This document shows, piece by piece, positions 23,759-64,000 of a DNA stretch of 64,000 nucleotides. The DNA comes from Candidatus Omnitrophota bacterium (GTDB taxonomy: Bacteria; Omnitrophota; Gorgyraeia; Zapsychrales; JANLHA01): the NCBI GenBank assembly GCA_963662715.1, contig OY759724.1, positions 2,010,662 through 2,074,661 of the forward strand. Reading direction: 5' to 3'. Position 1 is the stretch's first letter. Every line of letters starts with the position of its first letter. Under the pieces are notes generated by a model, which searched no databases, was not told the DNA's origin, and worked only from the letters and a program-made list of their open reading frames with translations. A program made the position numbers and the translations under genes.

Positions 23759-23921
23759 TTCATGAGATTTTATTGCCCGAGGGATCCGGCCGCGGAGGTC
23801 TTTCCTCTGTGCGCCCAGCGGTTGTCTTGCTTGCGCGGGTGAGCCGCTGTCCTGTGGCTGGCGTAACTGTTAACAATACATTCGGGTTAACTGCGTTGTT
23901 CCGGAAACAGTGGGAGTTGAA

Positions 23922-25001
23922 ATGGATATTGCCCTGATAACCGGCTCAGCCGGACTGATAGGCTCCGAAGCCGTGGAATTCTTCGCGCAAAAAGGGTTCA
24001 AGGTGATCGGAATAGATAATGATATGCGCAGGTATTTTTTTGGTCCCGAAGCTTCAACGCAATGGAATGCTTCCCGCCTGGAACAGGATGTTCTTTCGTA
24101 CGTGCATAAGAATATCGATATCCGGAATTTTTCCGGCCTGGAGCCGTTATTTAAAGAATACACCGCTGACATTAAACTTATTATTCATACGGCCGCGCAG
24201 CCTTCGCACGACTGGGCGGCCCGGGAACCGATAACGGATTTTACGGTCAACGCCAACGGCACCCTGAATCTTCTGGAATTGACGCGGCAGTGCTGCCCGC
24301 AAGCGGTTTTTATCTTTACCAGCACGAACAAGGTCTACGGGGATCTTCCCAACGCTTTGCCTTTGGAAGAGACGGAAACGCGTTGGGAGCTCAGCTCCCG
24401 GCATCCTTTTTTCGAGGGGATTGGCGAGACGATGAGCATTGATCAATCAAAACATTCTTTGTTCGGGGCTTCGAAAGCGGCGGCGGATATCCTGGTGCAG
24501 GAATACGGACGGTATTTTTCTCTGAAGACAGGATGTTTCCGCGGCGGCTGCTTGACCGGGCCCCGGCATTCCGGAACGATGCTGCACGGATTTCTAGCTT
24601 ATCTGATGAAGTGTGTTATGACCGGGACTCCGTATACGGTTTTCGGGTATAAAGGCAAACAGGTCCGGGATAATATTCACAGTTTTGATCTTGTGAATGC
24701 ATTTTATCATTTTTATTTACAACCCCGCCCGGGAGAAGTTTATAATATGGGAGGCGGCCGCAAGAACAACTGCTCCATGCTGGAAGCGATCCGGTACTGC
24801 GAGGATATTGCAGCGAAAAAATTATCCTGGACGCTTTGCGAGCAGCCACGGGCGGGTGACCATATCTGGTATATCAGTAACCTGGGCAAATTTAAAAGGC
24901 ATTATCCCCGGTGGGAGCAGAAATATGATATCCTGGAAACGCTTCAGCAGATCAGGGATATTAACAAGGAAAGATGGACCTTAAAGGAGGAGCCTGAATG
25001 A
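23922..25001 (+). CDS. NAD-dependent epimerase/dehydratase (SDR), CDP-paratose 2-epimerase-like
   Basis: '[19 protein letters not shown]' Rossmann motif and 'YGASKAAAD' catalytic YxxxK. Confidence 0.75.
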
Positions 25002-26398
25002 ACAAGTCAATCGCGGAACATTACGACAGCCTGGCAGACCAGCGGGATGATTTTCATAATAAGCATAAATATTATTATTCCCTCCTGTACAAACAGTATC
25101 ATTATTTGATCCCGGAAGGGAAGAAGGTTTTGGAAGTAGGATGTTCGACGGGAGACCTGCTCAATGAACTCAAACCCTCTTTGGGGGTCGGCATAGATAT
25201 CAGCCGGCAGTCGGTTCAGAAAGCCGCAGAGAAATACCCTCATCTGCAGTTTGAAGCTTGTGCCTTGCAGGATTTTTCGTCCCCGGAAAAATTTGATTTC
25301 ATTGTTCTTTCCGGTGTCTTGGGCGAGCTGGATGATATTCAGCAGTTTTTCCTGGACTTGAAGCCGTTTTGTCACGCACAGACGAGAATCATCATCGAGT
25401 ACTACAGTTATTTATGGCAGTACATTTTAAAATGGGGCGAAAAGACCGGGATGAAGATTCCGCAGAGGATACAAAACTGGATTACGTATCATGACCTCTG
25501 TAACTTTTTAGCTTTGACGGGGTTTGAGCCTGTTAAAACGGAAAGAGCTGTTTTATTCCCGGTGAATATTTGGGGGGTGAGTTATCTTATCAACAGGTTT
25601 ATGGCCCCTTTGCCGATTTTCAATGCTTTAACTCTGAACCATATGGTCATTGCCCGGCCGATTCTGGAGTTTGAACGGGATTTCTCTGTTACGATCCTTG
25701 TCCCCTGCCGCAATGAGAAGGGGAATATTGAGCATGCTATCACCCGAACCCCGGCTTTCGGCCAGCACCAGGAGTTTATTTTTGTGGAAGGCGGTTCCAA
25801 AGACGGGACGTATGAAGAAGTGGAAAGGGTCATCCAGGCCTATCCGGAAAAGGACATTAAACTTTTCCGGCAAAAGGGCAAAGGGAAGGGCGATGCGGTT
25901 CGTTTAGGTTTTAGTGAAGCCTCCGGGGAAATCCTGATGATCCTGGATGCCGATTTGACCGTGCCCCCGGAAGACTTGCCGAAATTTTACGATGCGATCC
26001 GTCACAACCGGGGCGAATTTATTAACGGTTGCCGGCTTGTGTATCCTATGGAAAAACAGGCGATGCGGTTTTTAAATCTTATTGCCAATAAATTTTTTGG
26101 TGTTTTCTTTTCCTGGCTGCTGGGGCAGAGATTTAAGGATACCCTTTGCGGGACGAAAGTCCTTTTTAAGCGGGATTATGAATCCTTGGTGGCCAACCGG
26201 GCTTATTTCGGGCATTTTGACCCGTTTGGGGATTTTGATCTTATTTTCGGAGCTGTGAAGTTGAACCTGAAAGTCCTCGAATTGCCGATCCGTTACAAAG
26301 AAAGGACTTACGGAACCACGCAGATCCAGCGGTTCCGGCACGGCCTGCTGCTTTTCAGGATGTGTTTTTTTGCGATGAAGAAGATTAAATTTCGTTAA
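24998..26398 (+). CDS. bifunctional fusion: N-terminal class I SAM methyltransferase plus C-terminal family-2 glycosyltransferase (DPM1-like)
   Basis: N-terminal '[15 protein letters not shown]'. C-terminal '[18 protein letters not shown]...[10 protein letters not shown]...[12 protein letters not shown]' carries the GT2 DxD. Confidence 0.65.
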
Positions 26399-26470
26399 GT
26401 TCTTTACTATTAATATTTTTTGTTTTTTCAAAAACAATAAAAAGAGACCGTACTAAAGCAAGAAATACAC

Positions 26471-26499
26471 TTGACAATTAATAATATTATTAATAATAT
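26471..26499 (+). promoter_or_regulatory. consensus sigma70 promoter (TTGACA-N17-TAATAT) whose spacer is a perfect 18-bp palindrome ATTAATAATATTATTAAT; likely an operator
   Basis: -35 at 26471-26476, palindrome at 26477-26494, -10 at 26494-26499. It lies 38 nt upstream of the GTG of the wHTH regulator gene. Confidence 0.45.
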
Positions 26500-26536
26500 G
26501 TTCAGGACTTGAACACGTATAACAGAGAGATCCCTT

Positions 26537-27091
26537 GTGATCAAAAATACCCTGAACGATAGAGAATTTGAATTAATTAATATTATTGGGTCAGAGCTTG
26601 CTAATAATCAAAGAGATCTTTCCCGCCATCTGAATATCTCCTTAGGCACAACCAATATGATTATCCGTCGGCTTATTGATAAGGGGTATATTCGCATCCG
26701 ACCTTTAAGAAAACGTAAAGTTGAGTACACATTAACTCCCAAAGGTTTTTCCGAAAGGCTGGAACAATCCATACATTCAACGCTTAAAACCCTTCATTCT
26801 ATTAAGCAGGTTAAACAGAATATCCGGGATATTATCAGAGACTGTTATGCCAGGGGGGAAAGAATGTTTTTTGCTTGCGGGGATGACGATATCTCTTTTT
26901 TAATGGAAACCGTGTTTAAGGAACCTGAATTTCAGGATTGTACGTTCCGTTGCTCATCTCAGGAACCGTTTCCTGAGGCAGAAGGGGTGGTTTTTATTTG
27001 TCAGCCGCAACCTGAATCATGGATGTCAGGGAACGGTAAGAGAATAAATTTAATCGAAATGTTAGCCAAAAAAGTTAATGATGAACAGTGA
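26537..27091 (+). CDS. winged-helix (MarR-like) transcriptional regulator
   Basis: 'NQRDLSRHLNISLGTTNMIIRRLIDKGYIRIRP' is an HTH followed by a wing. GTG start. Confidence 0.5.
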   Translation: MIKNTLNDREFELINIIGSELANNQRDLSRHLNISLGTTNMIIRRLIDKGYIRIRPLRKRKVEYTLTPKGFSERLEQSIHSTLKTLHSIKQVKQNIRDIIRDCYARGERMFFACGDDDISFLMETVFKEPEFQDCTFRCSSQEPFPEAEGVVFICQPQPESWMSGNGKRINLIEMLAKKVNDEQ

Positions 27092-28056
27092 GGTCCGTGG
27101 TGGAAAAGAAATTTATCATCAGAGAGGAAGATAAGATTTTTGTTGCCGGCCATAACGGCATGGTGGGCTCCGCAGTGGTCCGTCAGTTTCAAAAGAGAGG
27201 CTTTACAAATCTTGTCTTGAAATCCAGAAAAGAGTTGAATTTGATAGATACCGGGGCTGTTAAACGGTTTTTTGATGAAGAACAGCCGGATATTGTCATT
27301 GACGCCGCTGCCCGCGTGGGCGGGATTAAAGCCAATAATGAACATAAAGCCGAATTCCTTTTTGAAAATCTGGCGATTCAAAACAACATTATTCACCAGG
27401 CGTTTCTTCATAAGGTGAAAAAACTGTGTTTTTTGGGCAGCTCGTGTATCTACCCCAGAGAGTGCCCTCAGCCGATGAAGGAAGAATATCTGCTTACCGG
27501 GGCTCTGGAGCCGACGAATGAGGGCTATGCCCTGGCCAAGATCGCAGGCTTAAAAATGGTGGAATACTATCACCGGCAGTATGGTTTTCCCGGCATCAGC
27601 CTTATGCCGTGCAACCTTTACGGAACCAATGACTGTTTTGAACTCGATAAATCACACGTTATTTCCGCCTTGATTAAGAAAACCGTTGATGCCGTTGATG
27701 CGGGGAACGACCGTGTGCCCATTTGGGGGACGGGGAAAGCCTTGCGGGAATTATTGCATGTTGATGACGCCGCTGCGGCGATTGTTTTTATGCTGGAATA
27801 TTATGATGAACCGGAATTTATTAATGTCGGTTACGGGGAGGAGATTTCCATAAAAGATCTGGCTGAACTGATCGCCGAAAAAGCAGGGTTCAAAGGGGCG
27901 TTGGAATGGGATGCCAGCAAACCGGACGGTATGCCCCGAAAATGCATGGACGTCAGCCGGATGAAAGCCTTGGGATTTACCCCGCAGATTTCCTTGACCG
28001 AAGGCATCGAAAGGACTATTGCTGAGTACCGGGAGCTCAAGAAATCTTTTTCGTAG
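27088..28056 (+). CDS. fcl: GDP-L-fucose synthase (GDP-4-keto-6-deoxymannose 3,5-epimerase/4-reductase)
   Basis: 'KIFVAGHNGMVGSAVV' together with the 'LGSSCIYP' and 'YALAK' catalytic motifs; about 320 aa. The true start is probably GTG 27097 or 27100, which has a GAGGT SD. Confidence 0.8.
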   Translation: MRSVVEKKFIIREEDKIFVAGHNGMVGSAVVRQFQKRGFTNLVLKSRKELNLIDTGAVKRFFDEEQPDIVIDAAARVGGIKANNEHKAEFLFENLAIQNNIIHQAFLHKVKKLCFLGSSCIYPRECPQPMKEEYLLTGALEPTNEGYALAKIAGLKMVEYYHRQYGFPGISLMPCNLYGTNDCFELDKSHVISALIKKTVDAVDAGNDRVPIWGTGKALRELLHVDDAAAAIVFMLEYYDEPEFINVGYGEEISIKDLAELIAEKAGFKGALEWDASKPDGMPRKCMDVSRMKALGFTPQISLTEGIERTIAEYRELKKSFS

Positions 28057-28100: not shown

Positions 28101-29084
28101 ATGCTGAATCAAAAAGTCATTTTAGTTACCGGAGGGACAGGGTCGTTCGGAAAGAAGTTCACCGAGACGATACTTAAACAATTCAAGGTCAAGAAACTGA
28201 TCATCTTCAGCCGCGATGAGTATAAGCAGTTTGAGATGGCGAGGCTTTTTCCGGAAAAAAAATACCCTATCCGTTACTTTTTAGGAGATATTCGGGATAG
28301 AAACCGGCTTTACCGGGCCTTTGAAGGCGTTGATTACGTGGTCCACGCGGCCGCGCTCAAACAGGTCCCGGCTTTGGAATACAACCCGACCGAAGCGGTC
28401 AAAACAAATGTCAGCGGCGCTGATAATATTGTTAATGCGGCGATAGACGCCGGGGTTAAAAAAGTTGTCGCTTTGTCTACGGATAAGGCGGTGAACCCCA
28501 TCAACCTTTACGGGGCCACAAAACTGGTGGCTGAGAAAATATTCATCGCGGCCAATGCCTTTGCCGGAGGCCGGGTGAAATTCTCCGCGGTCCGGTACGG
28601 GAACGTCGTGGGCTCCCGGGGCAGCGTTATCCCGCTTTTTCTTCAATTGAAGAGCAAGGGATGCCATGAGTTTCCGCTCACTGATGAACGCATGACCCGT
28701 TTCTGGATTACTTTAGAGCAGGGCGTTAAACTGGTGATTAAAGCTCTGGACACATCAGAAGGCGGAGAAGTTTTTATCCCTAAAGTGCCTTCGATGAAGA
28801 TTGTTGATCTGGCCCGGGCGCTTGACCCGGCATGCCGGTTTAAGACGGTCGGCATCCGGCCGGGCGAAAAAGTCCATGAAACGTTGATTTCGATAGACGA
28901 ATCCCGCAACACCAAGATTGACGGGGATAATTACGTCATCCTTCCCCAGTTTTATGAAACGAAGGATGTCCACCGTCATTATGATAAATTGCCTCCTGTG
29001 CCCGAAGAGTTTTCCTATACGAGTGACAACAACCAGCAGTGGTTGACGGTTGAGCAGTTAAAGAAAATCATTTCAGAGCTCTGA
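28101..29084 (+). CDS. pseB: UDP-N-acetylglucosamine 4,6-dehydratase (inverting), PseB/FlaA1-like
   Basis: 'VILVTGGTGSFGKKF...LIIFSRDEYKQ...YFLGDIRDRNRL...YGATKL' is the PseB/CapD short-form signature. Confidence 0.8.
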   Translation: MLNQKVILVTGGTGSFGKKFTETILKQFKVKKLIIFSRDEYKQFEMARLFPEKKYPIRYFLGDIRDRNRLYRAFEGVDYVVHAAALKQVPALEYNPTEAVKTNVSGADNIVNAAIDAGVKKVVALSTDKAVNPINLYGATKLVAEKIFIAANAFAGGRVKFSAVRYGNVVGSRGSVIPLFLQLKSKGCHEFPLTDERMTRFWITLEQGVKLVIKALDTSEGGEVFIPKVPSMKIVDLARALDPACRFKTVGIRPGEKVHETLISIDESRNTKIDGDNYVILPQFYETKDVHRHYDKLPPVPEEFSYTSDNNQQWLTVEQLKKIISEL

Positions 29085-29090
29085 AGCGAT

Positions 29091-30536
29091 ATGAATGTAG
29101 CCTTTGTTTTCTCTTCTCAAAATGTTTTCTCTCCGGAGAAACCTTTACAATATCAGGAAGAAATGAATTTTGGTATTTCCTACATATCAGCATTTATAAA
29201 AAAACACGGGCATCAAACGCGGCTGTTTATAGTGACCAAAGACACAAAAATGAAGACTTTTCAGGAATTTGTAGACTCTTTTCAGCCTGAGGTTATCTGT
29301 TTTTCCAGCGTGACCAGCGAGTTCCCGTTTATAGTCCGCTGGATCAGAGATATCAAAGGATCCTACCCGCATATTTATTGTGTCGGAGGCGGCTGTCATA
29401 TAACCTTGAATCCTCATGACGGCCTGGAGACATCTCTGGACGCCCTTTGCATCGGAGAGGGGGAATGGCCGATCCTGGAACTTGTGGAGCAACTGGATCA
29501 GGGACGCATTCCGCAGGGAATAAGTAATTTATGGATTAAGCGGGACGGACAGGTTGAAAAGAACCGTATCCGTCCGTTTTTGGAAAACATTGATGATCTG
29601 CCGTTCCCGGACCGGGAGATGTGGCATCCCTGGACATTGGATCTGGACAGCCGGCCGGCGGTTCTTTTAGGCCGCGGATGTCCTTTTCAATGCACGTACT
29701 GTTCAAATCATGCCTTAAAGAAACTGGCATCAGGCACGTATGTCCGCTGCCGTTCCGCGGAGAATATTATTGCCGAACTCAAAGAGATCACGTCCCGGCA
29801 GCCTTCCGCCAGGGAGGTTTACTTTGAGGTGGAAACATTTAATGTGAATCTCCCCTGGGCTATCGGTTTGTGTGAAAGATTGGCAGAATTTAACCGGAAA
29901 AGGGACATCCCTCTGGAGTTTGGCGTGAACATCCGCGTCACGCCTAATACGGATTTTGCTTCGCTTTTTGCGGCCATGAAGAAGAGCCGGTTTTCTTTTA
30001 TCAATATCGGGGTCGAATCCGGCAGCGAACGGATCCGCCGGGATATTATGAAGCGGCGGTATTCCAACGACGATATTATGAAGACCGTTGCCCTGGCCCG
30101 GGAGCATGGATTAAAAGTGCATTTTTTGAACATGATCGGTCTCCCGACGGAAACAGAGGAGGATATCCGTCAGACGATTGCTGTTAACCGTGCCTGCCAG
30201 CCGGATATGTGGCCGTCCCATTCGATTTTTTTCCCGTACCCCGGGACAGAAATTCACCGTATGTGCCGGGAAATGAATTTATTGCCCCCCCAGATGGATG
30301 TCGAACGGGAACGCTCCCGGGCCGTGCTTAATCTGGACGGGTTGTCAAAAAGCAGAATTATGCATTATTTTGTCTGGTTTGACTATTATGTTTATAAAGG
30401 TCACCGCCCTTTATGGAAACTGCTGGCCCGGGTTTTTGTGGCCCGGCTGCATTGCTCGTACCGGTTGATGCGTATTTACCGGGGGCTGACCGAACGGGGC
30501 GTTCTTAAAAAATTGAAGGAGTTTCTCAAAAAATAA
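29091..30536 (+). CDS. B12-binding-domain radical SAM enzyme (copy 1)
   Basis: N-terminal cobalamin-binding Rossmann-like region, then 'LGRGCPFQCTYCSN', the CxxxCxxC radical-SAM cluster motif. Confidence 0.8.
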   Translation: MNVAFVFSSQNVFSPEKPLQYQEEMNFGISYISAFIKKHGHQTRLFIVTKDTKMKTFQEFVDSFQPEVICFSSVTSEFPFIVRWIRDIKGSYPHIYCVGGGCHITLNPHDGLETSLDALCIGEGEWPILELVEQLDQGRIPQGISNLWIKRDGQVEKNRIRPFLENIDDLPFPDREMWHPWTLDLDSRPAVLLGRGCPFQCTYCSNHALKKLASGTYVRCRSAENIIAELKEITSRQPSAREVYFEVETFNVNLPWAIGLCERLAEFNRKRDIPLEFGVNIRVTPNTDFASLFAAMKKSRFSFINIGVESGSERIRRDIMKRRYSNDDIMKTVALAREHGLKVHFLNMIGLPTETEEDIRQTIAVNRACQPDMWPSHSIFFPYPGTEIHRMCREMNLLPPQMDVERERSRAVLNLDGLSKSRIMHYFVWFDYYVYKGHRPLWKLLARVFVARLHCSYRLMRIYRGLTERGVLKKLKEFLKK

Positions 30537-31702: not shown

Positions 31703-32433
31703 TGAAAACAGTGGCTGTCATACAAGCCCGGATGAATTCTACCCGTCTGCCCGGGAAAGTCCTTATGGATATTGCCGGGCAGCCGATGCTGGCACATGTG
31801 GTCAGACGGTTGACACATAGCAGCCGGATTAATGAAATTGTCGTCGCTTTAACAACAGATACCGCTGATGATGTTGTGGAAATGTTTTGCCGGGACAGTA
31901 AAATCAAAATTTTTCGGGGGGAAAGTCATGACGTGTTGGACCGTTATTATCAAACAGCCCGATCTTTTCAGGCGGATTGTATCGTCCGGATCACCTCAGA
32001 CTGCCCTTTGATCGATCCTCAGGTCGTGGATCACGTTATCCGTGAATTCAAAGATACTTCCGCTGCTCTGGACGGGGCCACGAATTGTCTTCGCCGGACA
32101 TATCCTCGCGGACTCGACTGTGAAGTGTTCGGCTTTTCCGCCCTTGAGCGGTGCTGGAGACTGGCGGAGAAAGATTATTGCCGTGAGCATGTCACGATAT
32201 ATATGTATGAACATCCTGAGCTTTTTAAGATGAAAAATGTTGAATATAAGGAAGATTTGTCTTTTTACCGGTGGACCGTTGATGAAGAGCTTGATTTGAA
32301 ATTGGTGCGGGAGATTTATCTGAGACTGAGATCGGCAAAGGAGATGTTTTTTATGCAGGATATTCTGGAGGTGTTTGAAAGAGACCCGGCCCTTAAACAT
32401 ATCAACGAACATGTCCTTCAGAAACACGTTTAG
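31702..32433 (+). CDS. acylneuraminate cytidylyltransferase-family protein (PseF/SpsF-like CMP-sugar synthetase)
   Basis: 'AVIQARMNSTRLPGKVLMDIAGQPML' matches the cytidylyltransferase motif AR-x-x-S-x-R-x-x-x-K. Confidence 0.65.
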   Translation: MKTVAVIQARMNSTRLPGKVLMDIAGQPMLAHVVRRLTHSSRINEIVVALTTDTADDVVEMFCRDSKIKIFRGESHDVLDRYYQTARSFQADCIVRITSDCPLIDPQVVDHVIREFKDTSAALDGATNCLRRTYPRGLDCEVFGFSALERCWRLAEKDYCREHVTIYMYEHPELFKMKNVEYKEDLSFYRWTVDEELDLKLVREIYLRLRSAKEMFFMQDILEVFERDPALKHINEHVLQKHV

Positions 32434-36561: not shown

Positions 36562-36562
36562 G

Positions 36563-42493: not shown

Positions 42494-42543
42494 CGGCATT
42501 GGGAACGATTTTTTGATTGGCCTTATCAAGCAAGGAGGGGCAC

Positions 42544-57247: not shown

Positions 57248-58765
57248 TTGATTGTTGAGAAAGGACAGATGTTAGAACGCACAAAAGATCAAGTGAAAAT
57301 TTTGTTGATGTACCCCCCGACCGGATCGATCGGGACCTACAATACGCCGACAGGATTGCTTTATATCGCAACGGTCCTTCAGCATCATGGATATTTCGTC
57401 CGGCTTGTCGACTGTTCGGTCGAGCCGCGCTATCAGGATATTTTAGACCGGGAAATACCGGACACGGATTTGCTCGGCATTTACGCGATGAGCGTGCATA
57501 TCCGTTATCTTCTCCCGGAGCTCAGGCGACTGAAGGCCTTGAATCCACGGCTCAAAATTATCTGGGGCGGCCCGCATGCGATCCTTTTCCCCGAACAGAC
57601 GGCCAGCAGCCCTTTGGCGGATATCGTGACCCGGGGAGAGGGGGAAGACTTGATGCTGGAAATTGTCCGGGAATATGAAGCCGGCACCCTGGATTACCGC
57701 AAGATCAAAGGAATTTATTTTAAGGATAACGGGCAGATCACTTCAACCCCTCCGCGGCCTTTTGTCGACGTCAATCAACTTCCGTTTCTGGACTGGTCTT
57801 TTTTAAAGAAAGACGTCCTTGATACGGTGCGTAAAGGAATTATCCGGGTGCAGGCCAGCCGGGGTTGCCCTTACCGATGCGCCTTCTGTATTAATGTGCT
57901 TACGAATAACAGAAAGATGCGGTATCGGGATCCGGAAAAGGTCGTTGATGAAATCGAATACTTAACCCGGGAATATCATATCCACCGGGTCGGCTTCCGG
58001 GATGAGGTCTTTATGTCCAACCGTAAACAGGTGAAGGATATTGCCCAGGGGATTCTTGACCGGGATATCCATATTACCTGGCTGGCTAATCCCCGGGTCG
58101 AGTATCTCAGGGAATCCTATATCGACGATGCTTATTTAAAACTGCTGGCCGATTCCGGCTGCAACAAGCTGCAGTGCGGAGGAGAATCCGGGTCCCAGCG
58201 GATTCTGGATATGCTGCATAAAGGGATTAAAGTGGATGATATCCTTAATTTTGTCCGGAGAACCAAAAAATATAATATTTATCCGCTGGTCGCTTTTATG
58301 ACCGGGATTCCCACCGAGACAAAAGCGGAGCAGATGCAGACGCTGAGGCTTATCAGGGATATTTTACGTATACAGCCGGTAGCTTTTATCAACGGCCCGG
58401 CGAATTACCGCCCTTATCCCGGAGGGGAACTGTATGATATGTGCGTGAAGGAGTATCATTTGAAGATGCCGGATTCCCTGGAAGGCTGGGAGAAAGCGGA
58501 AATTCTGGGGGGGAGTGCGCCTCCGTGGGTCGAAGACGTCTGTTTCAACCAGTTTTTGTGGACCAGCACGAAGGCGGCGACCTATTCTTTCTCCTATTTG
58601 TGGAAACAGATCCGCCGGAATCCTTTGAAAGGGTTGGCGATTTCCTTTTTAAGCATAATTTCGAGGATGCGTTTACGCTGGCTTTTTTACCGTTTCCCTT
58701 TTGAATTTTATCTGTTGAATTTTTATTATCAAAGAATCCTTAAAAAAGTCCCGGAATACAGTTAA
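57248..58765 (+). CDS. B12-binding-domain radical SAM enzyme (copy 3)
   Basis: 'IIWGGPHAILFPEQ...TRGEGED', then 'ASRGCPYRCAFC'. Confidence 0.8.
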   Translation: MIVEKGQMLERTKDQVKILLMYPPTGSIGTYNTPTGLLYIATVLQHHGYFVRLVDCSVEPRYQDILDREIPDTDLLGIYAMSVHIRYLLPELRRLKALNPRLKIIWGGPHAILFPEQTASSPLADIVTRGEGEDLMLEIVREYEAGTLDYRKIKGIYFKDNGQITSTPPRPFVDVNQLPFLDWSFLKKDVLDTVRKGIIRVQASRGCPYRCAFCINVLTNNRKMRYRDPEKVVDEIEYLTREYHIHRVGFRDEVFMSNRKQVKDIAQGILDRDIHITWLANPRVEYLRESYIDDAYLKLLADSGCNKLQCGGESGSQRILDMLHKGIKVDDILNFVRRTKKYNIYPLVAFMTGIPTETKAEQMQTLRLIRDILRIQPVAFINGPANYRPYPGGELYDMCVKEYHLKMPDSLEGWEKAEILGGSAPPWVEDVCFNQFLWTSTKAATYSFSYLWKQIRRNPLKGLAISFLSIISRMRLRWLFYRFPFEFYLLNFYYQRILKKVPEYS

Positions 58766-58770: not shown

Positions 58771-59739
58771 ATGATTATGCTGAACGGCTTGCGGCTCGCT
58801 TTGGGTAACGAAATCAAAGAAGGCCCCTGGGGAGGAGGCAATCAGTTCCTGTCTTCTTTTAAAACGCATTTAGAGAGTAAGGGAGCCAAGGTTTTCTTCC
58901 GTTTAGAAGATGATCTGGATGTGATTATTTTGTTTAATCCCCGCAGAGAGAGCGGGACGTTCCACCATAAGGATGTTAAACGGTATAAAAAACGTTTTCC
59001 TAAAGCGAGAGTGATTCACCGGATCAACGAAACCGATAAGGCTAAAAACACCCGGTTTATCGACCGTTTACGCCTTGAGGCCAATAAAGTGGCCGATGCC
59101 GTTATTTTTATCAGCGAATGGGTCAGAGACTATTATATCAGCAAAGGTTTTGACCAGAGGATCCCTTCCTTCGTCATCCGCAACGGACCTGATGAAAATA
59201 TTTTCAACTCGCGGGGATACACCCCGTGGCAGCCCAACGGGTCCCTGAGAGTTGTTACGCATCATTGGTCGGATAATCCCATGAAAGGTATTGATATTTA
59301 TCAATATTTTGATAGACTTCTGAATGATCCCTGGATGAAGAGGTTATTCAACTTTACGTATATTGGCCGTTACCCTAAAGGGGTTCAATTGCAGCAGACA
59401 CAGTGCGTCCCCCCTTTATTCGGTGCGGATCTGGCGCGTGAACTGAAAAAGCATCATGTTTATTTGACGGCGGCCCGATGGGAATCCTGCGGTATGCATC
59501 AGCTGGAAGGCGCCTGTTGCGGCCTGCCGGTTCTTTATATTGATGAAGGCGGGGGCGTCGTTGAGACCTGCCGGGATGCCGGGATTAAATTTACCGTTGA
59601 GACCTTCCCGGTCAGCCTTTTCAAAATGAGGGAAGAATATCCTTCCTTGCAGCCGAAGTTAAACGCGTTCCCTTTTAATGCCCGCTTGATGTGTCAGGAA
59701 TATGAGAATGTTATCGAGAAAATTCTTATGAGCTCCTAG
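58771..59739 (+). CDS. putative GT-B glycosyltransferase (GT1/GT4-like C-terminal domain)
   Basis: 'ARWESCGMHQLEGACCGLPVLYID' resembles the GT4 E-x7-E donor-binding motif. Confidence 0.45.
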   Translation: MIMLNGLRLALGNEIKEGPWGGGNQFLSSFKTHLESKGAKVFFRLEDDLDVIILFNPRRESGTFHHKDVKRYKKRFPKARVIHRINETDKAKNTRFIDRLRLEANKVADAVIFISEWVRDYYISKGFDQRIPSFVIRNGPDENIFNSRGYTPWQPNGSLRVVTHHWSDNPMKGIDIYQYFDRLLNDPWMKRLFNFTYIGRYPKGVQLQQTQCVPPLFGADLARELKKHHVYLTAARWESCGMHQLEGACCGLPVLYIDEGGGVVETCRDAGIKFTVETFPVSLFKMREEYPSLQPKLNAFPFNARLMCQEYENVIEKILMSS

Positions 59740-59803
59740 CGAAAGGAGATTCAGTTGAAGAAAATAAAAGAAGGTTAATTGTTACCTGAAAGGAGATCGG
59801 CCT

Positions 59804-60523
59804 GTGAGTGCTAAAGCCTATAATACGGGAGATAATATTAATGTCGGTAATGCGCAATGGAATTTTTCGGCTGCCGCAAAGAATTTTGATGAACATGTCA
59901 AAAAGTCGGTTCCGTTTTATGAAGCCGGGCACGATTATATTGCCCAGCTGGCCAGTTTCTTTTTGCGGGATCAGGCCGTTGTTTATGAAATCGGCTGTTC
60001 GACAGGGGAACTGGCTCATCGAGTCCTGCGGCACAATTCAGAGAAAAAAGTCAAATATGTCGCTATTGACAATGTGGCGCCTATGGTCACACAGGCGAAG
60101 AAACGGCTCAAAGACGATAAAAGGGCCCGGGTTGTTCTGGGAGACGCTCTGACCCATTCTTATAAACCCTGTTGCCTTTATCTTTCTTATTATACGATTC
60201 AGTTTATTAAGCCCTGCGTGAGACAGGAACTTATCAATAAAATTTACAATGCCTTGGAATGGGGCGGGGCTGCCATTATTTATGAAAAAGTCAGGGGCAC
60301 GGATGCCCGTTTCCAGGATATCCTGACCCAGCTTTACACGGACTACAAGTTGGCCCAGGGATTTACGGAAGCAGAAATTATTCATAAGACACGGAGTTTG
60401 AAAGGAGTTCTGGAACCGTTTAGCACGGCCGGGAACATGGATTTATTTAAAAGGGCCGGTTTTGTGGATATTATGATGATTCAGAAATATCTCTGTTTTG
60501 AAGGGTATTTGTGTATTAAATGA
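59804..60523 (+). CDS. CmoA-like class I SAM-dependent methyltransferase
   Basis: 'FDEHVKKSVPFYEAGHDYIAQLA...VYEIGCSTGE' parallels the CmoA N-terminal pattern F-D-x-x-V-x-x-S-V-P-x-Y. GTG start preceded by the SD GAAAGGAGAT. Confidence 0.55.
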   Translation: MSAKAYNTGDNINVGNAQWNFSAAAKNFDEHVKKSVPFYEAGHDYIAQLASFFLRDQAVVYEIGCSTGELAHRVLRHNSEKKVKYVAIDNVAPMVTQAKKRLKDDKRARVVLGDALTHSYKPCCLYLSYYTIQFIKPCVRQELINKIYNALEWGGAAIIYEKVRGTDARFQDILTQLYTDYKLAQGFTEAEIIHKTRSLKGVLEPFSTAGNMDLFKRAGFVDIMMIQKYLCFEGYLCIK

Positions 60524-60632
60524 TGGAAAGAGGAAAGGGGGTAGGGGTATTTTTCCCCTCCGATGAATTGGCCTGGGATAATGAAAATGTATTTAAAATC
60601 ATTTTCATGAGCTCCTAAAGAAAGGAGATCTG

Positions 60633-61322
60633 ATGCAAACTTTTACAGAAAAACAAACTCGGCAGGAATACTGGGATATTCAAATCCAGTATTCAAGATT
60701 GAAATTCGCTTTCTGTAAAGTGAGCATCCCGTGTGTCAAGCATTGGAAAAGAATTATCACTCGCTGCCAAAAAGGATCGGCTATCAAGGGGCCGATCCTG
60801 TGCCTGGCGACCCGTAACGGCAGGGAAATCGATGTTTTTCGTAATGTTTTTTTCGGGCACCCTATGAGGGTCGCTTTCATGGGGCTTTTGGAACAACATA
60901 AAAACGCTTTTTCTTCCCGCTGGCGTTTTCTGGAAACGATTAATAAAAGTAACATTAATAATATTAAAGAAGGCAGTGTTGTCGGAGTCGAGATAAATCC
61001 AGATGGGAGAAGACAGGATGTGTTAATCGCGAGCTTTGACGAACTTCCGGCAGAATGGGGGGGGAAGTTTCAGGTCGTGTACTCAAATTCTTTGGATCAT
61101 GCCCAGGACCCTTATCGGGCGTCTCAAGAATGGTTCCGTGTTCTTCAGCCCGGCGGCTATTTGATCCTCGGTTCTCCGGGGGAAAATATTAATCCTTCCA
61201 AGGTTGATATCGTCGGGAATATTGGGCTTGCCGATATTCAGGAATTATTCCCCGGGGAACTGCTTTATCATAATAAGTACGGGAATGCTTTCCAGGACAC
61301 CATTATTAGAAAGCGGAAATAA
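60633..61322 (+). CDS. hypothetical protein, SAM-methyltransferase-like
   Basis: 'ILCLATRNGREIDVF', 'FQVVYSNSLDHAQDP' and 'VLQPGGYLILGSP' are arranged like MTase motifs I, II and III. Confidence 0.4.
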   Translation: MQTFTEKQTRQEYWDIQIQYSRLKFAFCKVSIPCVKHWKRIITRCQKGSAIKGPILCLATRNGREIDVFRNVFFGHPMRVAFMGLLEQHKNAFSSRWRFLETINKSNINNIKEGSVVGVEINPDGRRQDVLIASFDELPAEWGGKFQVVYSNSLDHAQDPYRASQEWFRVLQPGGYLILGSPGENINPSKVDIVGNIGLADIQELFPGELLYHNKYGNAFQDTIIRKRK

Positions 61323-61395
61323 CTGAGGCAGAAAATGTCTGCTCATTCAGTACGAATTTACTTTTTAGCCTGTATGATTTTTCTGTGAATATCAT

Positions 61396-62484
61396 ATGAA
61401 TCTTCAGCAAACGACGAAATATTACTGGCGGTTTCTTCAGGAGGGAATTAAAAACCGTTTGGTCAAAAAACCGACGGTTTTTTATATTACGGAATCAGCG
61501 GACTGGGTCGTTAAAAGAATCGGCGATATCCTGAGTGCGGGTACGGTTCCCGGTTTCCGGACAGCTGTTTCAACAGCAGGGATCAGGAATTCGGTCATTC
61601 ACTACGGGACCCCCTACGGATTGTGGGGCCCCCAACAGATACGCCTGCCCCACCCCTCTAATGCCCTTGTTGTCACCTGGTTTCATATCCCCCCTGATGA
61701 CGGACGTCTTCCGGTATTGCCCCAAGTCATCCCCCATGTGTCGCTCTGGCATACGGCCTGTACGCTCACCCAAGAGAAGCTCATTCAATTGGGCGTCCCT
61801 CCGGAAAAAATAGTCCTGATCCCTTTAGGCGTTGACACCAGATTGTTCAGACCCGTGAACGACGCAGAGAAAAAAGAGATACGGCAGGCGATGGGATTGC
61901 CTTTGGATAAGACCGTTATCGGCTCTTTTCAAAAAGACGGTGTGGGATGGGGCGAAGGGCAGGAGCCGAAACTCATTAAAGGGCCGGATGTGTTTTGTGA
62001 CGTTGTGGAACGATTAGCCCGGCGGCAAGATGTCTTCGTCCTTTTGACCGGACCTTCCCGGGGCTATGTCAAACAACGCTTAAAGGAAAAAGGGATCCCT
62101 TTTCAGCATTATTATTTTGATCGATATGAAGAAATCGTGCGCTGTTATCAGGCCTTGGATTTATATCTGGTCTCTTCTCGTGAAGAGGGCGGGCCTTTGG
62201 CTGTGCTTGAGTCCATGTCCGCGGGAATCCCTGTCGTCTCGACCCGGGTGGGATTGGCCCCGGATATCATACGGGACGGAGCTAATGGGTTTCTTGCCGA
62301 AGTGGAAGACCGAAGCGCCCTGGAATCGAACATAATGACTTTGCTCGAACAAAACTCCTTGCGCGAGGCGTTTGTCGAGCAAGGGAGACAAACTGTTCTT
62401 GCATATGACTGGGGGGAAATTGTCGGTCTTTATGAAAAACAGATTTATCGGGTGTTGATGGGCAGATCAACCTGCTGTCATTGA
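61396..62484 (+). CDS. family-1 (GT4) glycosyltransferase
   Basis: 'SSREEGGPLAVLESMSAGIPVVSTRVG' is the GT4 E-x7-E motif. Confidence 0.75.
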   Translation: MNLQQTTKYYWRFLQEGIKNRLVKKPTVFYITESADWVVKRIGDILSAGTVPGFRTAVSTAGIRNSVIHYGTPYGLWGPQQIRLPHPSNALVVTWFHIPPDDGRLPVLPQVIPHVSLWHTACTLTQEKLIQLGVPPEKIVLIPLGVDTRLFRPVNDAEKKEIRQAMGLPLDKTVIGSFQKDGVGWGEGQEPKLIKGPDVFCDVVERLARRQDVFVLLTGPSRGYVKQRLKEKGIPFQHYYFDRYEEIVRCYQALDLYLVSSREEGGPLAVLESMSAGIPVVSTRVGLAPDIIRDGANGFLAEVEDRSALESNIMTLLEQNSLREAFVEQGRQTVLAYDWGEIVGLYEKQIYRVLMGRSTCCH

Positions 62485-62563
62485 CCGCCCCGCATGACAT
62501 ACTGGCGGCTCCTTGACAGATTTTGGGGGAGCGTGAACGCTCCGTGGAACCCGGGGGGAAGTT

Positions 62564-63370
62564 TTGAAAAAACAACAGATGGCCTTACGTTTAGATGACG
62601 TGTTTGCTTCAACGAAAATGTTTGAAATTTACGGAAAAGAAACTGTCTCCGTAGGAGGCAGGGTTATCCCTGTTTCCATGATCTCTAATTTTTTATTCAT
62701 GAAATATGTCCCGGGTTTCAGGCGGAGGCTCCCTTACCGGGAAATGACGGCTGAAGAATGGGAGAGTGTTTTCCGGTTGCTGGAACGATATAACGCGAAA
62801 TTAACCATAGGTGTTACCGCGACTTGGGTCGAACGGGACGGGGCACAGACCCCGTTCTTTGAAAAGTTCCCTCAAGAGGCGGCCATACTTAAAGAAGGCG
62901 TTAAGGCCGGCCTTGTTGAAATTGCCAACCATGGGCTGACCCATTGCGTTGAAGGACGCCATTTGCCGCAATGGTTTTCATCCAACCGGAAATTCCATAG
63001 GGAATTCTGGCCTTGGATTCCTGAAGACGTGCAGAGGGATCATATTCAAAGAGCCCAGGCTCTTTTAAGCCACTATTTTGAAATTGATGTTGTGACTTTT
63101 GTCCCGCCTGGAAATGTCTGGACAGAGCAGACGGAACGCATGGCTTTTCATCACGGGCTCCGTGTCCTTTCTTCTCTGGAGACCAAGTGCCCTACCGGGG
63201 AAAAAAATCATGGTTTAGTATATATCGGGGATGCCGCTGTCTGCGCTTTTCATGATAGGGAACTCGTTTTGTGCGGGATAAAATGGTTTGAAGATTTGCT
63301 GAAGCAGCATGGCGATTATGATATTATAACTATCAAAGAATTAGCGGCGGGCTTTGACGCGCCTTGTTAA
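62564..63370 (+). CDS. hypothetical protein, polysaccharide-deacetylase-like (DUF2334/NodB-like)
   Basis: 'LRLDDVFAS' and 'EIANHGLTHC' resemble Asp/His metal-ligand motifs of carbohydrate esterase family 4-like proteins. Weak. Confidence 0.35.
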   Translation: MKKQQMALRLDDVFASTKMFEIYGKETVSVGGRVIPVSMISNFLFMKYVPGFRRRLPYREMTAEEWESVFRLLERYNAKLTIGVTATWVERDGAQTPFFEKFPQEAAILKEGVKAGLVEIANHGLTHCVEGRHLPQWFSSNRKFHREFWPWIPEDVQRDHIQRAQALLSHYFEIDVVTFVPPGNVWTEQTERMAFHHGLRVLSSLETKCPTGEKNHGLVYIGDAAVCAFHDRELVLCGIKWFEDLLKQHGDYDIITIKELAAGFDAPC

Positions 63371-63388
63371 ACGTGGACTTAATTCCAT

Positions 63389-64000
63389 ATGCATATTCTG
63401 GTGTTTCTAACATTTAATATTTCATTGAAAAAATGGGATGTTTATGGCCTTTTAGACCGGGAAATCGCTCTTTACCGGCAGCTCGTTGAAGATGGTCTTA
63501 AGGTGAGCTTGTTAACCTACGGAGATGAAGAAGATCTGGACTATCAGGAACGTTTGGGCGGCATCGGGATAATTCCCGTTTATCAGTTTGCCTCCAGGCC
63601 AAAATCCACGCTTTTACGTTTCCTGCAGAGTCTGATCCTTCCGTTTCGTTTAAAAGCCCAATTGCGCCAGGCAGATATTTATAAAACGAATCAGATGTGG
63701 GGTAGCTGGGTTGCTGTTGTGGCCAAGATCCTTTACCGGAAGACACTGGTCATACGGTGTGGATATGAACAGTTTCGCTTTGGCCTTTTGATGAAAATGC
63801 CGTGGACTTTTAAGATTTTCACCTACCTTAATTCTTTCATCTCGTATCGGGTTGCAGATAAGATTGTTATTTCATCCGAGATCGGGAAAAATTTTATAAT
63901 AAAATTTTTTAAAATACAGGAAAATAAGATTAAAATACAATATAATTATGTTGAAACGCAAAAGTTTAAGCCTCTGCCGGAAACAAGGCACCCGGACCGT
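63389..64000 (+). CDS. GT1/GT4-family glycosyltransferase, N-terminal part (runs off the window end). Not in the ORF track.
   Basis: ATG at 63389 is in frame to base 64000. Translation 'MHILVFLTFNISLKKWDVYGLLDREIALYRQLVEDGLKVSLLTYGDEED...' has a GT-B N-domain character. Confidence 0.5.
   Translation, partial: MHILVFLTFNISLKKWDVYGLLDREIALYRQLVEDGLKVSLLTYGDEEDLDYQERLGGIGIIPVYQFASRPKSTLLRFLQSLILPFRLKAQLRQADIYKTNQMWGSWVAVVAKILYRKTLVIRCGYEQFRFGLLMKMPWTFKIFTYLNSFISYRVADKIVISSEIGKNFIIKFFKIQENKIKIQYNYVETQKFKPLPETRHPDR

Follow-up and report, generated by a model that had tools for sequence, protein, structure and literature searches.

A composite surface-glycan island from an Omnitrophota-like bacterium with a predicted E1-lipoyl N-acylation module among nonulosonate genes

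Introduction

In the biosynthesis of quinocarcin (QncN, QncL and QncM) and scleric acid (SclQ1-4), an E1-like enzyme dependent on thiamine diphosphate (ThDP) charges a lipoyl domain with a C2 glycolicacyl unit, which an acyltransferase dedicated to this task hands to a biosynthetic acceptor, not to CoA (PMC6335953). Two routes to the two-carbon branched sugars eurekanate, paulomycose and yersiniose have been described, one through E1αβ pairs resembling pyruvate dehydrogenase (PDH) and the other through the ThDP enzyme YerE; AviB1/AviB2 and Pau11/Pau12 consist, as described, of α and β subunits only, and the substrate of YerE is a CDP-3,6-dideoxy-4-keto sugar (PMC4425429). This work concerns a 64,000-nucleotide stretch of contig OY759724.1 (hereafter the window), in which an E1αβ pair and a lipoyl carrier are encoded among genes for a pseudaminic acid (Pse)-type nonulosonate, within a single island for surface-glycan biosynthesis that spans at least 40 kb, is read in one direction and stems from an Omnitrophota-like source.

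How bacterial surfaces are recognised depends to a large extent on nonulosonic acids (sialic, pseudaminic and legionaminic acids). Many of their N-acyl variants are known chemically, the enzymes supplying the acyl groups are mostly unassigned, and the cell envelopes of anaerobic candidate phyla are essentially unstudied. Among the cobalamin-dependent (class B) radical S-adenosylmethionine (SAM) enzymes, GenK, GenD1 and Fom3 act on sugars.

Genes were called with Pfam and NCBIfam using curated cut-offs, and neighbourhoods were compared across genome and metagenome loci, designated here by L numbers. A first-pass annotation of the window had described a glycan island combining Pse and CDP-3,6-dideoxyhexose pathways with radical-SAM enzymes, a ThDP/lipoyl unit and many methyltransferases. 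Profile searches and neighbourhood comparisons agree with that description, although a short NeuB gene (45,848-46,576) and the two-module composite nature of the island had been missed.

Results

An E1-lipoyl unit beside a sugar N-acyltransferase gene

Four genes follow one another between those for a PseG-like hydrolase and for pseudaminic acid synthase (PseI):

33489..34130, + strand, NeuD/PglD-type left-handed-β-helix (LbH) N-acyltransferase (TIGR03570, 177 bits, cut-off 161; Pfam PglD_N and Hexapep)
34187..35104, + strand, ThDP-dependent E1α (Pfam E1_dh, 2.5e-56; GDG...NN ThDP motif)
35114..36127, + strand, E1β (Pfam Transket_pyr and Transketolase_C)
36124..36561, + strand, 145-aa carrier with a lipoyl domain and a peripheral subunit-binding domain, PSBD (Pfam Biotin_lipoyl; IETTK lysine motif; PSBD profile)

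The E1α/E1β pair and lipoyl carrier of the first-pass annotation are thus supported by Pfam. The carrier, whose IETTK lipoyl-lysine motif is kept among its homologues, stops after the PSBD at 145 aa and corresponds to an E2 protein minus its catalytic core. The Pfam E3_binding (PSBD) model gave no match on the carrier at E ≤ 0.1; a profile of the 42 C-terminal residues, drawn from 14 lineages, matched the PSBDs of PDH E2 proteins in the PDB (1w4i, E 6.7e-8; 2eq9_C, 1.2e-5) and also the PSBD position in full-length E2 chains. An E2 catalytic core (2-oxoacid_dh) was found neither in the window nor in the annotated neighbourhoods of L082-L085, L116 and L117.

Orthologues of E1α (49-63% identical) were located in amino-sugar or nonulosonate loci in every case inspected. 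Genes for CTP_transf_3, a PseG-like protein, a 365-aa Biotin_lipoyl, PglD_N and Hexapep fusion, E1α, a lipoate-protein-ligase-like protein, E1β and NeuB follow each other in Candidatus Saganbacteria (L082/L083). The order in L084 (PIG-L, LbH transferase, E1α, E1β, a 155-aa lipoyl protein and NeuB) matches that of the window. L085 carries a legionaminic-type set, then E1α, an insertion sequence (IS) element, E1β and a 385-aa lipoyl-LbH fusion; L116 carries PseB-like, DegT, NeuB, CTP_transf_3 and GNAT genes, then E1α, E1β and a 360-aa fusion; and L117 is a bacillosamine-like locus with DegT/Bac_transf (PglC-like), E1α, E1β and a 361-aa fusion.

In-frame fusions of the lipoyl, PSBD and LbH domains were present in at least 11 lineages (L082/83, L085, L087, L088/89, L095, L102, L103, L105, L109, L116 and L117), always adjoining E1αβ genes and in the context of nonulosonate or amino-sugar loci. 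They measured 354-386 aa in L088/89, L095, L102, L103, L105 and L109, the one in L087 being truncated, and showed 41-48% identity (BLASTP) to the carrier of the window and 33-57% to its transferase; in L086 the carrier was fused to a different hexapeptide-repeat domain. The LbH transferase of the window was 57-66% identical to the LbH parts in L082, L084 and L088. A metagenome scan seeded by carrier-derived patterns alone yielded 27 loci, and E1α or E1β (both where the contig reaches) adjoined the carrier in 25 of these, the other two being too short. A lipoate-protein ligase gene lay within the module in L082, L086 and L107, and a NeuB-family gene was adjacent to it in L082-85, L088/89, L102, L107, L109 and L116. 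In L001, a close relative of the window, PIG-L and GNAT (PseH-like acetyltransferase) genes stand between the PseG-like gene and PseI, the slot which the NeuD, E1α, E1β and lipoyl genes occupy in the window, pointing to a shared N-acylation position.

The best NCBIfam matches of the E1 and lipoyl genes were PDH E1α/β and the E2 lipoyl region of acetoin dehydrogenase, as might suit a remnant or paralogue of a housekeeping pyruvate/acetoin dehydrogenase without a glycan role. All these scores, however, were below the curated cut-offs, E2 core and E3 were both not found, and the arrangement recurs in nonulosonate/amino-sugar loci of many unrelated lineages with the carrier fused to a sugar N-acyltransferase; a housekeeping origin is considered very improbable.

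The main alternative, though also improbable, is that the E1αβ pair is a two-carbon branching enzyme of the AviB1/AviB2 or Pau11/Pau12 type, the lipoyl protein being an accessory: PDH-like E1αβ pairs do occur in branched-sugar pathways (PMC4425429), and the island makes two 4-keto-6-deoxy nucleotide sugars as possible acceptors. The Avi and Pau systems consist, however, of α and β subunits only (PMC4425429), whereas here a carrier with lipoyl domain and PSBD always accompanies E1αβ, usually fused to an N-acyltransferase, and in three lineages the module also contains a lipoate ligase. The presence of a lipoyl arm implies that the ThDP intermediate is oxidised to an acyl thioester and does not enter carboligation, and the replacement of the module by PIG-L and GNAT in L001 is N-acyl chemistry. 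The first-pass annotation had treated the E1/lipoyl unit as generic radical/ThDP chemistry; its genes were as described, and the comparison suggests acyl delivery to the NeuD-type N-acyltransferase, not C-branching.

In the proposed mechanism of N-acylation, E1 would decarboxylate a 2-oxo acid and reductively acylate the lipoyl arm, pyruvate being the default guess for the donor and 2-oxobutyrate, hydroxypyruvate or a ketose donor other possibilities. The PSBD would tether the carrier to E1, and the trimeric LbH transferase, in place of an E2 core, would acylate the UDP-sugar at its 4-amino group, with S-acyl-dihydrolipoyl as the donor. The acylated amine would become N7 of Pse, the LbH route replacing PseH. 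E2 cores and LbH transferases are both trimers, which makes such a domain swap structurally plausible.

No earlier description of a module of E1αβ, lipoyl-PSBD and LbH N-acyltransferase was found, and it is the most valuable result of this analysis. Nothing relevant in the open-access library searched tied nonulosonates to a dehydrogenase E1, pseudaminic acid to lipoyl proteins or legionaminic acid to thiamine. The idea that the lipopolysaccharide locus of Legionella pneumophila encodes PDH-like E1 genes was unsupported by PMC3766260 and was dropped.

A second arrangement of E1 and carrier genes was observed in L090-L100, L106, L108 and L110-L112 (for instance, L100 6118-10236): E1β, E1α, a 135-142-aa carrier with lipoyl and PSBD-like domains, a β-ketoacyl synthase III (FabH-like) and a FabG-like short-chain dehydrogenase/reductase (SDR), with genes for a hexapeptide transferase, polysaccharide deacetylase, FdtA-like isomerase and NDP-sugar dehydratase/epimerase nearby. 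In these loci a 3-hydroxyacyl group may be built from a lipoyl-bound primer for sugar N-acylation. Five genes beside NeuB in L082 (13578-19142) and L084 (2258-6989), encoding Acetyltransf_9, glyoxalase, AMP-binding ligase, inositol-monophosphatase-like and PdxA-like proteins, look like a further acyl- or side-chain-building cassette for nonulosonates.

Two separately conserved modules

Apart from a 100% identical copy on a 3.36-Mb contig, the closest loci by the first B12-binding radical-SAM gene (B12-rSAM 1, 77-78% identity) were L001, an ENA contig, and L002, a Candidatus Omnitrophota metagenome-assembled genome. Gene order in both agreed with that of the window, running from UvrD through two hypothetical genes and methylenetetrahydrofolate reductase (MTHFR) to the shared series methyltransferase, SDR, methyltransferase-GT2 fusion, helix-turn-helix (HTH) protein, Fcl-like protein, PseB, B12-binding radical-SAM, PseC, cytidylyltransferase, PseG-like protein, PseI and the next three or four genes. 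L114 (JGI 3300045411), an unrelated metagenome contig, held 14 orthologues of the right half of the island in one block: the methyltransferases MT239 (68% identity), MT229 and MT218, the ABC exporter (49%), RfbF, RfbG, the RmlC-like protein, RfbH (51%), a GT2 (55%), the SPASM radical-SAM (40%), B12-rSAM 2 (59%), the polysaccharide deacetylase and two GT1s. The 21 kb seen of L114 contained no Pse genes. In L113, a B12-binding radical-SAM gene was accompanied by orthologues of the methyltransferase-GT2 fusion, of the methyltransferase at 22,985 and of MT229, plus Bac_transf and Wzy_C genes. Since the Pse half is syntenic in L001/L002 and the right half recurs in L114, the two are conserved separately; read from gene order, the island is a composite of independently conserved modules A (the Pse half) and B (the right half), joined here.

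The pseudaminic acid-type half (module A) and the genes to its left

Module A (~27.1-42.5 kb) and the genes preceding it comprised, besides the genes listed above and those of the radical-SAM and Maf-fold proteins described below:

22985..23758, + strand, SAM methyltransferase, the first gene of the island (Pfam Methyltransf_11)
23910..25001, + strand, SDR-family NDP-sugar epimerase/dehydratase (Pfam Epimerase, 1.6e-34; no NCBIfam equivalog reached)
24998..26398, + strand, fusion of a SAM methyltransferase and a GT2 (Pfam Methyltransf_23, residues 36-180; Glycos_transf_2, 232-362)
26537..27091, + strand, winged-helix (MarR-like) putative regulator (Pfam HTH_24/MarR_2; kept in L001/L002)
27088..28056, + strand, GDP-L-fucose-synthase-like (Fcl) 3,5-epimerase/4-reductase (NCBIfam GDPFucSynFcl, 425 bits, cut-off 500)
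28101..29084, + strand, PseB, UDP-GlcNAc 4,6-dehydratase (inverting) (TIGR03589, 497 bits, cut-off 408)
30539..31702, + strand, PseC aminotransferase (TIGR03588, 524 bits, cut-off 423)
31702..32433, + strand, CMP-nonulosonate-synthetase-type cytidylyltransferase, putative PseF by family (Pfam CTP_transf_3, 2.9e-32; no curated equivalog)
32446..33459, + strand, PseG-like UDP-sugar hydrolase (TIGR03590, 133 bits, cut-off 154, the sole NCBIfam match; Pfam Glyco_tran_28_C)
36521..37618, + strand, PseI, pseudaminic acid synthase (TIGR03586, 453 bits, cut-off 340; Pfam NeuB and SAF)
38498..39247, + strand, second nucleotidyltransferase, CTP_transf_3/NTP_transf_3 (Pfam CTP_transf_3, 7.4e-9; no NCBIfam match; kept in L001/L002)
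39222..40574, + strand, conserved 450-aa protein, function not assigned (only sub-threshold Glyphos_transf; 58% identical in L001/L002)
40520..42493, + strand, 657-aa protein with an uncharacterised N-terminal region of ~440 aa and a C-terminal SAM methyltransferase (Pfam Methyltransf_25/11, residues 447-550)

The Pse set of the first-pass annotation held for PseB, PseC, PseI and NeuD, which passed their cut-offs, and for two cytidylyltransferase-family genes (Pfam), and PseG stayed below its cut-off; likewise, Fcl was the clear best match for its gene but fell short of the curated score. A GNAT-type PseH was not found in the island by Pfam scan. Module A would make and transfer a modified CMP-pseudaminic-acid-type nonulosonate, in the order PseB, PseC, N-acylation, PseG-like hydrolase, PseI and cytidylyltransferase.

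Orthologues of the methyltransferase at 22,985 occupied the equivalent position in L001/L002 (67-68% identity) and lay beside the orthologue of the methyltransferase-GT2 fusion in L113; those of the fusion (51-86% identity) were found in L001, L002, L113, L030 and L049. The 657-aa protein showed a weak match to the Pse-associated methylase TIGR03587 (NCBIfam), and its N-terminal ~440 aa gave no sequence match in the PDB. Neither did the 450-aa protein, for which a single-sequence AlphaFold2 (AF2) model was unusable (pLDDT 37.7).

Radical-SAM enzymes

The island encodes five radical-SAM proteins:

29091..30536, + strand, B12-binding radical-SAM 1 (B12-rSAM 1), between PseB and PseC (Pfam B12-binding and Radical_SAM; CPFQCTYC)
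50793..51872, + strand, radical-SAM/SPASM protein (Pfam Radical_SAM and SPASM; CNLRCKMC)
51906..53333, + strand, B12-binding radical-SAM 2 (B12-rSAM 2) (Pfam B12-binding and Radical_SAM)
55927..57228, + strand, radical-SAM protein with a Cys-rich C-terminus (Pfam Radical_SAM only, no SPASM match; CNYRCAFC; C376/C379/C389)
57248..58765, + strand, B12-binding radical-SAM 3 (Pfam B12-binding and Radical_SAM; CPYRCAFC)

Six such enzymes had been annotated, four of them B12-binding and two SPASM. The CxxxCxxC motif was present in all five found here; B12-binding scored above its Pfam cut-off in three (29,091, 51,906 and 57,248; 26-28% identical to one another), and SPASM was detected in one, a second protein having the Cys-rich tail only.

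The family of B12-rSAM 1 is large (2,346 matches at E ≤ 1e-20), with relatives ~50% identical in Omnitrophota, Planctomycetota, Actinomycetota, Patescibacteria and archaea. Commonest among the 116 immediate neighbours of its orthologues in 79 genomes were GT1 (14), GT2 (7), other radical-SAM (7), Wzx (5), methyltransferase (4) and polysaccharide deacetylase (4) genes, and the dominance of glycan enzymes in these counts indicates that the family is glycan-associated. The idea that B12-rSAM 1 is a dedicated Pse enzyme was rejected: among 80 genome loci, only L001/L002 place the orthologue between PseB and PseC, and elsewhere the orthologues adjoin assorted GT1, GT2, Wzx, methyltransferase and deacetylase genes. 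B12-rSAM 2 belongs to a rare family, with about 12 orthologues at 46-65% identity before a fall to 43% or below, and its orthologue is adjoined by that of the SPASM protein in L114 (40% identity) and L115 (53%). A second nonulosonate-associated family of B12-binding radical-SAM enzymes, not in the window, was represented in L001 (12603-13973) and Saganbacteria (L082, 5780-7153) by genes 54% identical to each other, each of which immediately precedes the cytidylyltransferase/PseG-like pair of its locus. B12-binding radical-SAM genes were present in the nonulosonate loci of L085 and L109 too, so that the association with nonulosonates recurs across phyla.

B12-rSAM 1, encoded between PseB and PseC, would add a further modification, C-methylation being the default guess. 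The first-pass annotation had gone further and read a C-methylated or C-branched glycan from the radical-SAM genes, a claim which the searches did not bear out: no curated NCBIfam equivalog was approached by any radical-SAM enzyme of the island, and the solved structures nearest to B12-rSAM 1 were AprD4, a sugar diol dehydratase, and one unnamed protein. It is possible, though on balance not expected, that these enzymes are not sugar C-methylases and instead carry out AprD4-like dehydration/deoxygenation, BtrN-like oxidation, epimerisation or decarboxylation, or act on a peptide or lipid acceptor. The top rank of AprD4, the far weaker scores of the B12-dependent methylases CysS and TokK, and the best NCBIfam matches of the SPASM enzymes (cofactor/peptide maturases and BlsE, all far below cut-off) speak for this view. 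Against it, B12-binding domains were above the Pfam cut-off in three of the enzymes, while AprD4 is not known to use cobalamin, and the neighbours of B12-rSAM 1 orthologues were overwhelmingly glycan enzymes. Nothing linking radical SAM to nonulosonate or pseudaminic acid biosynthesis was found in the open-access library searched.

The Maf-fold protein and the question of protein glycosylation

The gene after PseI (37615..38580, + strand) encodes a 321-aa protein of Maf/sialyltransferase fold, annotated at first as Maf-like DUF115. The fold stood; in the window copy the Pfam score with MptE-like/DUF115 was 20.2 bits (cut-off 34.6). The same model was matched by 14 of the 23 members of its family (best E 1.9e-11), a tiny one of 56 cluster representatives among 1.84 billion. 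A confident AF2 model (pLDDT 94.6) gave nothing in Foldseek; the Maf catalytic fold is present, with 195 residues aligned to Maf 5mu5_A (632 aa) at 14% identity. The protein has half the length of Maf, and the alignment covers roughly the catalytic part only. This fold is common to sialyltransferases acting on lipo-oligosaccharides. The protein is probably a CMP-nonulosonate transferase, the likely candidate for transferring the nonulosonate made by module A.

A link to protein glycosylation, drawn in the first-pass annotation from this gene and from a PglK-like exporter, came out possible but weak. If the island served flagellin, pilin or S-layer glycosylation, the Maf-fold enzyme would act on protein directly, attaching the Pse derivative to it. 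We consider this unlikely: the protein of the window is half as long as Maf (321 vs. 632 aa, 195 residues aligned), lipo-oligosaccharide sialyltransferases have the same fold, MsbA and HepA matched the ABC exporter at least as well as PglK did (all below cut-off), and module B has relatives with genes for Wzy_C, Bac_transf, Wzx and polysaccharide deacetylase, typical of polysaccharide loci. Within the window there was no gene for Gmd, an RfbI-type E3 reductase, a priming phosphoglycosyltransferase, Wzx/Wzy/WaaL, an oligosaccharyltransferase, an O-OTase, flagellin or other flagellar proteins, pilin or S-layer protein. The acceptor of the glycan may be lipid A-core, a capsule anchor or protein.

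In L115 (1-8231), orthologues of the SPASM protein (53%) and of B12-rSAM 2 (63%) stand beside a GT2 gene, two genes from an 895-aa STT3/AglB-type oligosaccharyltransferase with a DnaJ domain; this oligosaccharyltransferase is the only hint linking to protein N-glycosylation.

CDP-dideoxyhexose, assembly and export genes (module B)

The remaining genes of module B (~42.5-63.4 kb and beyond) were:

42517..43317, + strand, RfbF/DdhA, glucose-1-phosphate cytidylyltransferase (TIGR02623, 440 bits, cut-off 300)
43205..44407, + strand, RfbG/DdhB, CDP-glucose 4,6-dehydratase (TIGR02622, 495 bits, cut-off 278, residues 43-388)
44408..44965, + strand, RmlC-type 3,5-epimerase, putative AscE-like role (TIGR01221, 182 bits, cut-off 156)
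44962..45870, + strand, SDR 4-reductase candidate (Pfam Epimerase, 4.6e-32; no equivalog)
45848..46576, + strand, short NeuB-family enzyme of 242 aa, TIM barrel without SAF domain (Pfam NeuB, 7.7e-50)
46634..47287, + strand, GT2 glycosyltransferase (Pfam Glycos_transf_2, 1.3e-30)
47271..49190, + strand, ATP-binding cassette (ABC) exporter with fused transmembrane and nucleotide-binding domains, MsbA/HepA/PglK-like (Pfam ABC_membrane and ABC_tran; 49% identical in L114)
49132..50046, + strand, FkbM-family methyltransferase (Pfam Methyltransf_21, TIGR01444)
50098..50754, + strand, SAM methyltransferase (Pfam Methyltransf_11; 46% identical orthologue in L114)
53354..55075, + strand, RfbH/DdhC, CDP-4-keto-6-deoxyglucose 3-dehydrase (E1) (NF011936, 647 bits, cut-off 423, residues 110-568)
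55054..55920, + strand, GT2 glycosyltransferase (Pfam Glycos_transf_2; 55% identical in L114)
58771..59739, + strand, weak GT1-like glycosyltransferase (Pfam Glycos_transf_1, 25.4 bits, cut-off 26.4; 60% identical to part of a 657-aa L114 GT1)
59804..60523, + strand, SAM methyltransferase (Pfam Methyltransf_25; 68% identical in L114)
60633..61322, + strand, SAM methyltransferase (Pfam Methyltransf_11; L113 52%, L114 42%)
61396..62484, + strand, GT1/GT4 glycosyltransferase (Pfam Glycos_transf_1, 1.8e-25)
62564..63370, + strand, polysaccharide deacetylase (Pfam Polysacc_deac_1; 43% identical in L114)
63383..64000, + strand, cut open reading frame (ORF) of at least 206 aa, following the polysaccharide deacetylase gene without an intervening one and open up to the window end

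RfbF, RfbG, RfbH and the RmlC-type epimerase passed their cut-offs, in agreement with the annotated CDP-dideoxyhexose set; its reductase matched Pfam Epimerase only. Module B would make a CDP-3,6-dideoxyhexose through RfbF, RfbG, RfbH, the RmlC-like epimerase and the SDR reductase. The SPASM/B12-rSAM 2 pair, two more radical-SAM enzymes and four methyltransferases would tailor the dideoxyhexose or the growing glycan, which would be assembled by GT2 and GT1 enzymes and exported via the MsbA/PglK-type ABC transporter. An RfbI/DdhD/AscD-type E3 reductase (ferredoxin-reductase type) was found neither among the ORFs of the island nor in L114, and may be encoded elsewhere in the genome.

RfbH retains SFYPAHH (His in place of the pyridoxal phosphate lysine) and the DCWCEPGQDNTC cysteine motif, which we take to be the E1 His-for-Lys and Fe-S cysteine motifs. 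Its ORF has ~100 codons ahead of the homology, and the alignment to the 439-aa L114 orthologue begins at residue 129; a GGAGG-like sequence precedes each of the GTG starts at 53,354 and 53,651, so that the later start may be used or the N-terminal extension may be genuine. The true start of RfbG is probably near 43,320.

The short NeuB gene is the last in the series of CDP-sugar genes and lies outside the Pse block. Its product scored 184 bits with NCBIfam NeuB (cut-off 400) and retains the SDHT and EKHF motifs. Its presence, like that of the second nucleotidyltransferase (38,498), may mean that the island makes a second ulosonic acid. Another short NeuB-only protein, of 292 aa, is the sole NeuB of the L116 nonulosonate cluster, and SfmA of Shewanella is a further example (PMC3765264).

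Among the other annotated enzymes, three GT2s and the GT1 at 61,396 were recovered and the GT1 at 58,771 was weak. The exporter has ABC_membrane and ABC_tran domains as claimed, without particular closeness to PglK. Both fused methyltransferases (24,998 and 40,520) were confirmed, and the count of seven or eight became six from 23,910 onward, with a seventh at 22,985.

Extent, packing and flanks of the island

The island forms an unbroken run of 39 complete + strand genes (22,985-63,370), the only minus-strand ORFs being short shadows within these. The claim of some 30 co-directional genes with gaps under 60 nt between 27.1 and 59.7 kb proved accurate: 31 genes lie in 27,088-59,739, about half of them overlapping and the largest gap being 57 nt. 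As the ORF from 63,383 runs off the window end, the island extends past the window and is truncated at the right.

The upstream 22 kb were housekeeping in character (RodZ, a MiaB-like radical-SAM protein, PgsA, PgpA, CinA, MetH, MlaE/F/D, DsbD and UvrD), and MTHFR, on the minus strand, abuts the left edge of the island. This boundary (UvrD, two hypothetical genes and MTHFR) is kept in the Omnitrophota relatives L001/L002, and the GC content of the island (43-51%) is the same as that of the flanks; a stable left boundary in the lineage and flank-like GC give no sign of recent transfer. A horizontal-transfer signature was accordingly rejected, tRNA genes also being absent from the 64-kb window.

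MetH, a B12-dependent methionine synthase (7224-10952, +), lies ~12 kb upstream of the island and MTHFR at 21866-22735 (-), its placement against the island edge being kept in L001. Their proximity may reflect methyl-cycle support for the seven SAM methyltransferases and five radical-SAM enzymes of the island, or coincidence. Three ORFs without a Pfam match lie between DsbD and the island (15923-17740, 17901-19190 and 20885-21865, +; 605, 429 and 326 aa), and two hypothetical genes fill the matching UvrD-MTHFR interval in L001. A c-di-GMP-I-GGC riboswitch (RF03167, 5044-5120, +; 62.6 bits, gathering score 59) precedes an ABC-2-type exporter pair (ATPase 5413-6330, permease 6377-7147) by ~290 nt.

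Discussion

A composite island, in which two separately conserved modules are joined and the first includes an E1-lipoyl-LbH unit for N-acylation, is the likely explanation of the gene content and order described here. A more specific proposal, which we put forward tentatively and hold to be somewhat less likely than not, is that a 2-oxo-acid dehydrogenase without E2 core, in which the LbH transferase replaces that core, delivers acyl groups from the lipoyl arm to a nucleotide-sugar amine, bypassing acyl-CoA, and that this chemistry, combined with B12-radical-SAM alkylation of the Pse precursor, would yield a nonulosonic acid of a type not seen before, with a wide distribution among anaerobic phyla that are uncultivated, Omnitrophota and Saganbacteria among them.

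Several points weigh against these interpretations. Neither the window nor the neighbourhoods inspected (L082-L085, L116 and L117) contained an E3 (dihydrolipoamide dehydrogenase, Pyr_redox_2), so the re-oxidation of the lipoyl arm is unexplained by local genes, and the window also had no lipoate ligase. The LbH family normally uses acyl-CoA, and we know of no precedent for an acyl-lipoyl donor; if the acyl group is plain acetyl, the gain over acetyl-CoA is unclear. Acyl transfer through E1, lipoyl carrier and LbH transferase is inferred from genes at every step. PseG and Fcl scored under their curated cut-offs, the PseF role is given by family only, the E3/RfbI partner of RfbH is absent from the window, and methylation is only a default in view of the missing equivalogs and the closeness of AprD4 to B12-rSAM 1.

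If the lipoyl-arm route is true, it represents a new biochemical logic in which the domain order of central metabolism is reused with a swapped catalytic core, as well as a testable source of unusual N-acyl groups, and the lipoyl-PSBD-LbH fusion beside E1αβ would be a simple genomic marker for such glycans in metagenomes. The recurrence of B12-radical-SAM genes in these loci suggests that anaerobic candidate phyla commonly bear surface sugars that are carbon-alkylated or otherwise modified by radical chemistry. The module is directly testable, its proteins being small and soluble and the PseC product being makeable enzymatically.

Comparison with known systems

As in the pseudaminic acid pathway of Campylobacter and Helicobacter (PseB, C, H, G, I and F), the island has PseB, PseC and PseI past their cut-offs, with a PseG-like gene and a gene of the CMP-sugar-synthetase family, in one operon-like block. 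It differs from that pathway in lacking a GNAT PseH, the LbH transferase, E1αβ and lipoyl-PSBD carrier standing at that step, in having a B12-radical-SAM gene between pseB and pseC, and in a PseG under cut-off and a PseF assigned by family only. The CDP-3,6-dideoxyhexose pathways of Salmonella and Yersinia O-antigens (rfb/ddh, asc) are matched by RfbF, RfbG and RfbH, which pass their cut-offs, with the RfbH motifs kept, and further by the RmlC-like epimerase and SDR reductase that come next, in the manner of the ascarylose branch; unlike those pathways, the island and L114 are without an RfbI/DdhD/AscD E3 reductase, and the island pathway is interleaved with the SPASM/B12-rSAM pair and the short NeuB-family gene.

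The B12-binding radical-SAM enzymes resemble the class B enzymes acting on sugars in their N-terminal B12-binding domain, CxxxCxxC core and encoding in sugar pathways, but reach no equivalog and belong to cell-surface glycan loci of uncultivated anaerobes, not to antibiotic clusters. The Maf-fold protein has the catalytic fold of Maf and of the GT42/GT29 sialyltransferases; Maf flagellin transferases, in contrast, are ~600 aa at full length, with flanking domains and flagellar linkage, whereas the protein of the window has 321 aa and no flagellar genes within 64 kb.

With the pyruvate/acetoin 2-oxo-acid dehydrogenase complexes, the island has in common the genes for a ThDP-dependent E1α/E1β heterodimer, the lipoyl lysine motif and the order lipoyl, PSBD and (acyltransferase). 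The E2 CAT-like core, however, is absent everywhere inspected, an LbH sugar N-acyltransferase being fused there in most lineages, no E3 is nearby, and the context is glycan biosynthesis, not central metabolism. Like AviB1/AviB2, Pau11/Pau12 and YerE, the E1αβ pair is PDH-like and encoded within a deoxysugar pathway with 4-keto sugars, and the substrate type of YerE is the sugar type made by RfbF/G/H of the island; those enzymes, though, are described without a lipoyl carrier and form C-C bonds, whereas in modules of the island type the carrier, its fusion to an N-acyltransferase in many lineages and the lipoate ligase embedded in some suggest acyl transfer. The nearest precedent, compared by description only, is the Qnc/Scl system, in which a ThDP E1, a lipoyl domain and an acyltransferase likewise deliver to a biosynthetic acceptor; that system keeps an E2-type catalytic domain and delivers to an acyl carrier protein for nonribosomal peptide synthesis, whereas the island has an LbH transferase and, presumably, a nucleotide-sugar amine as acceptor.

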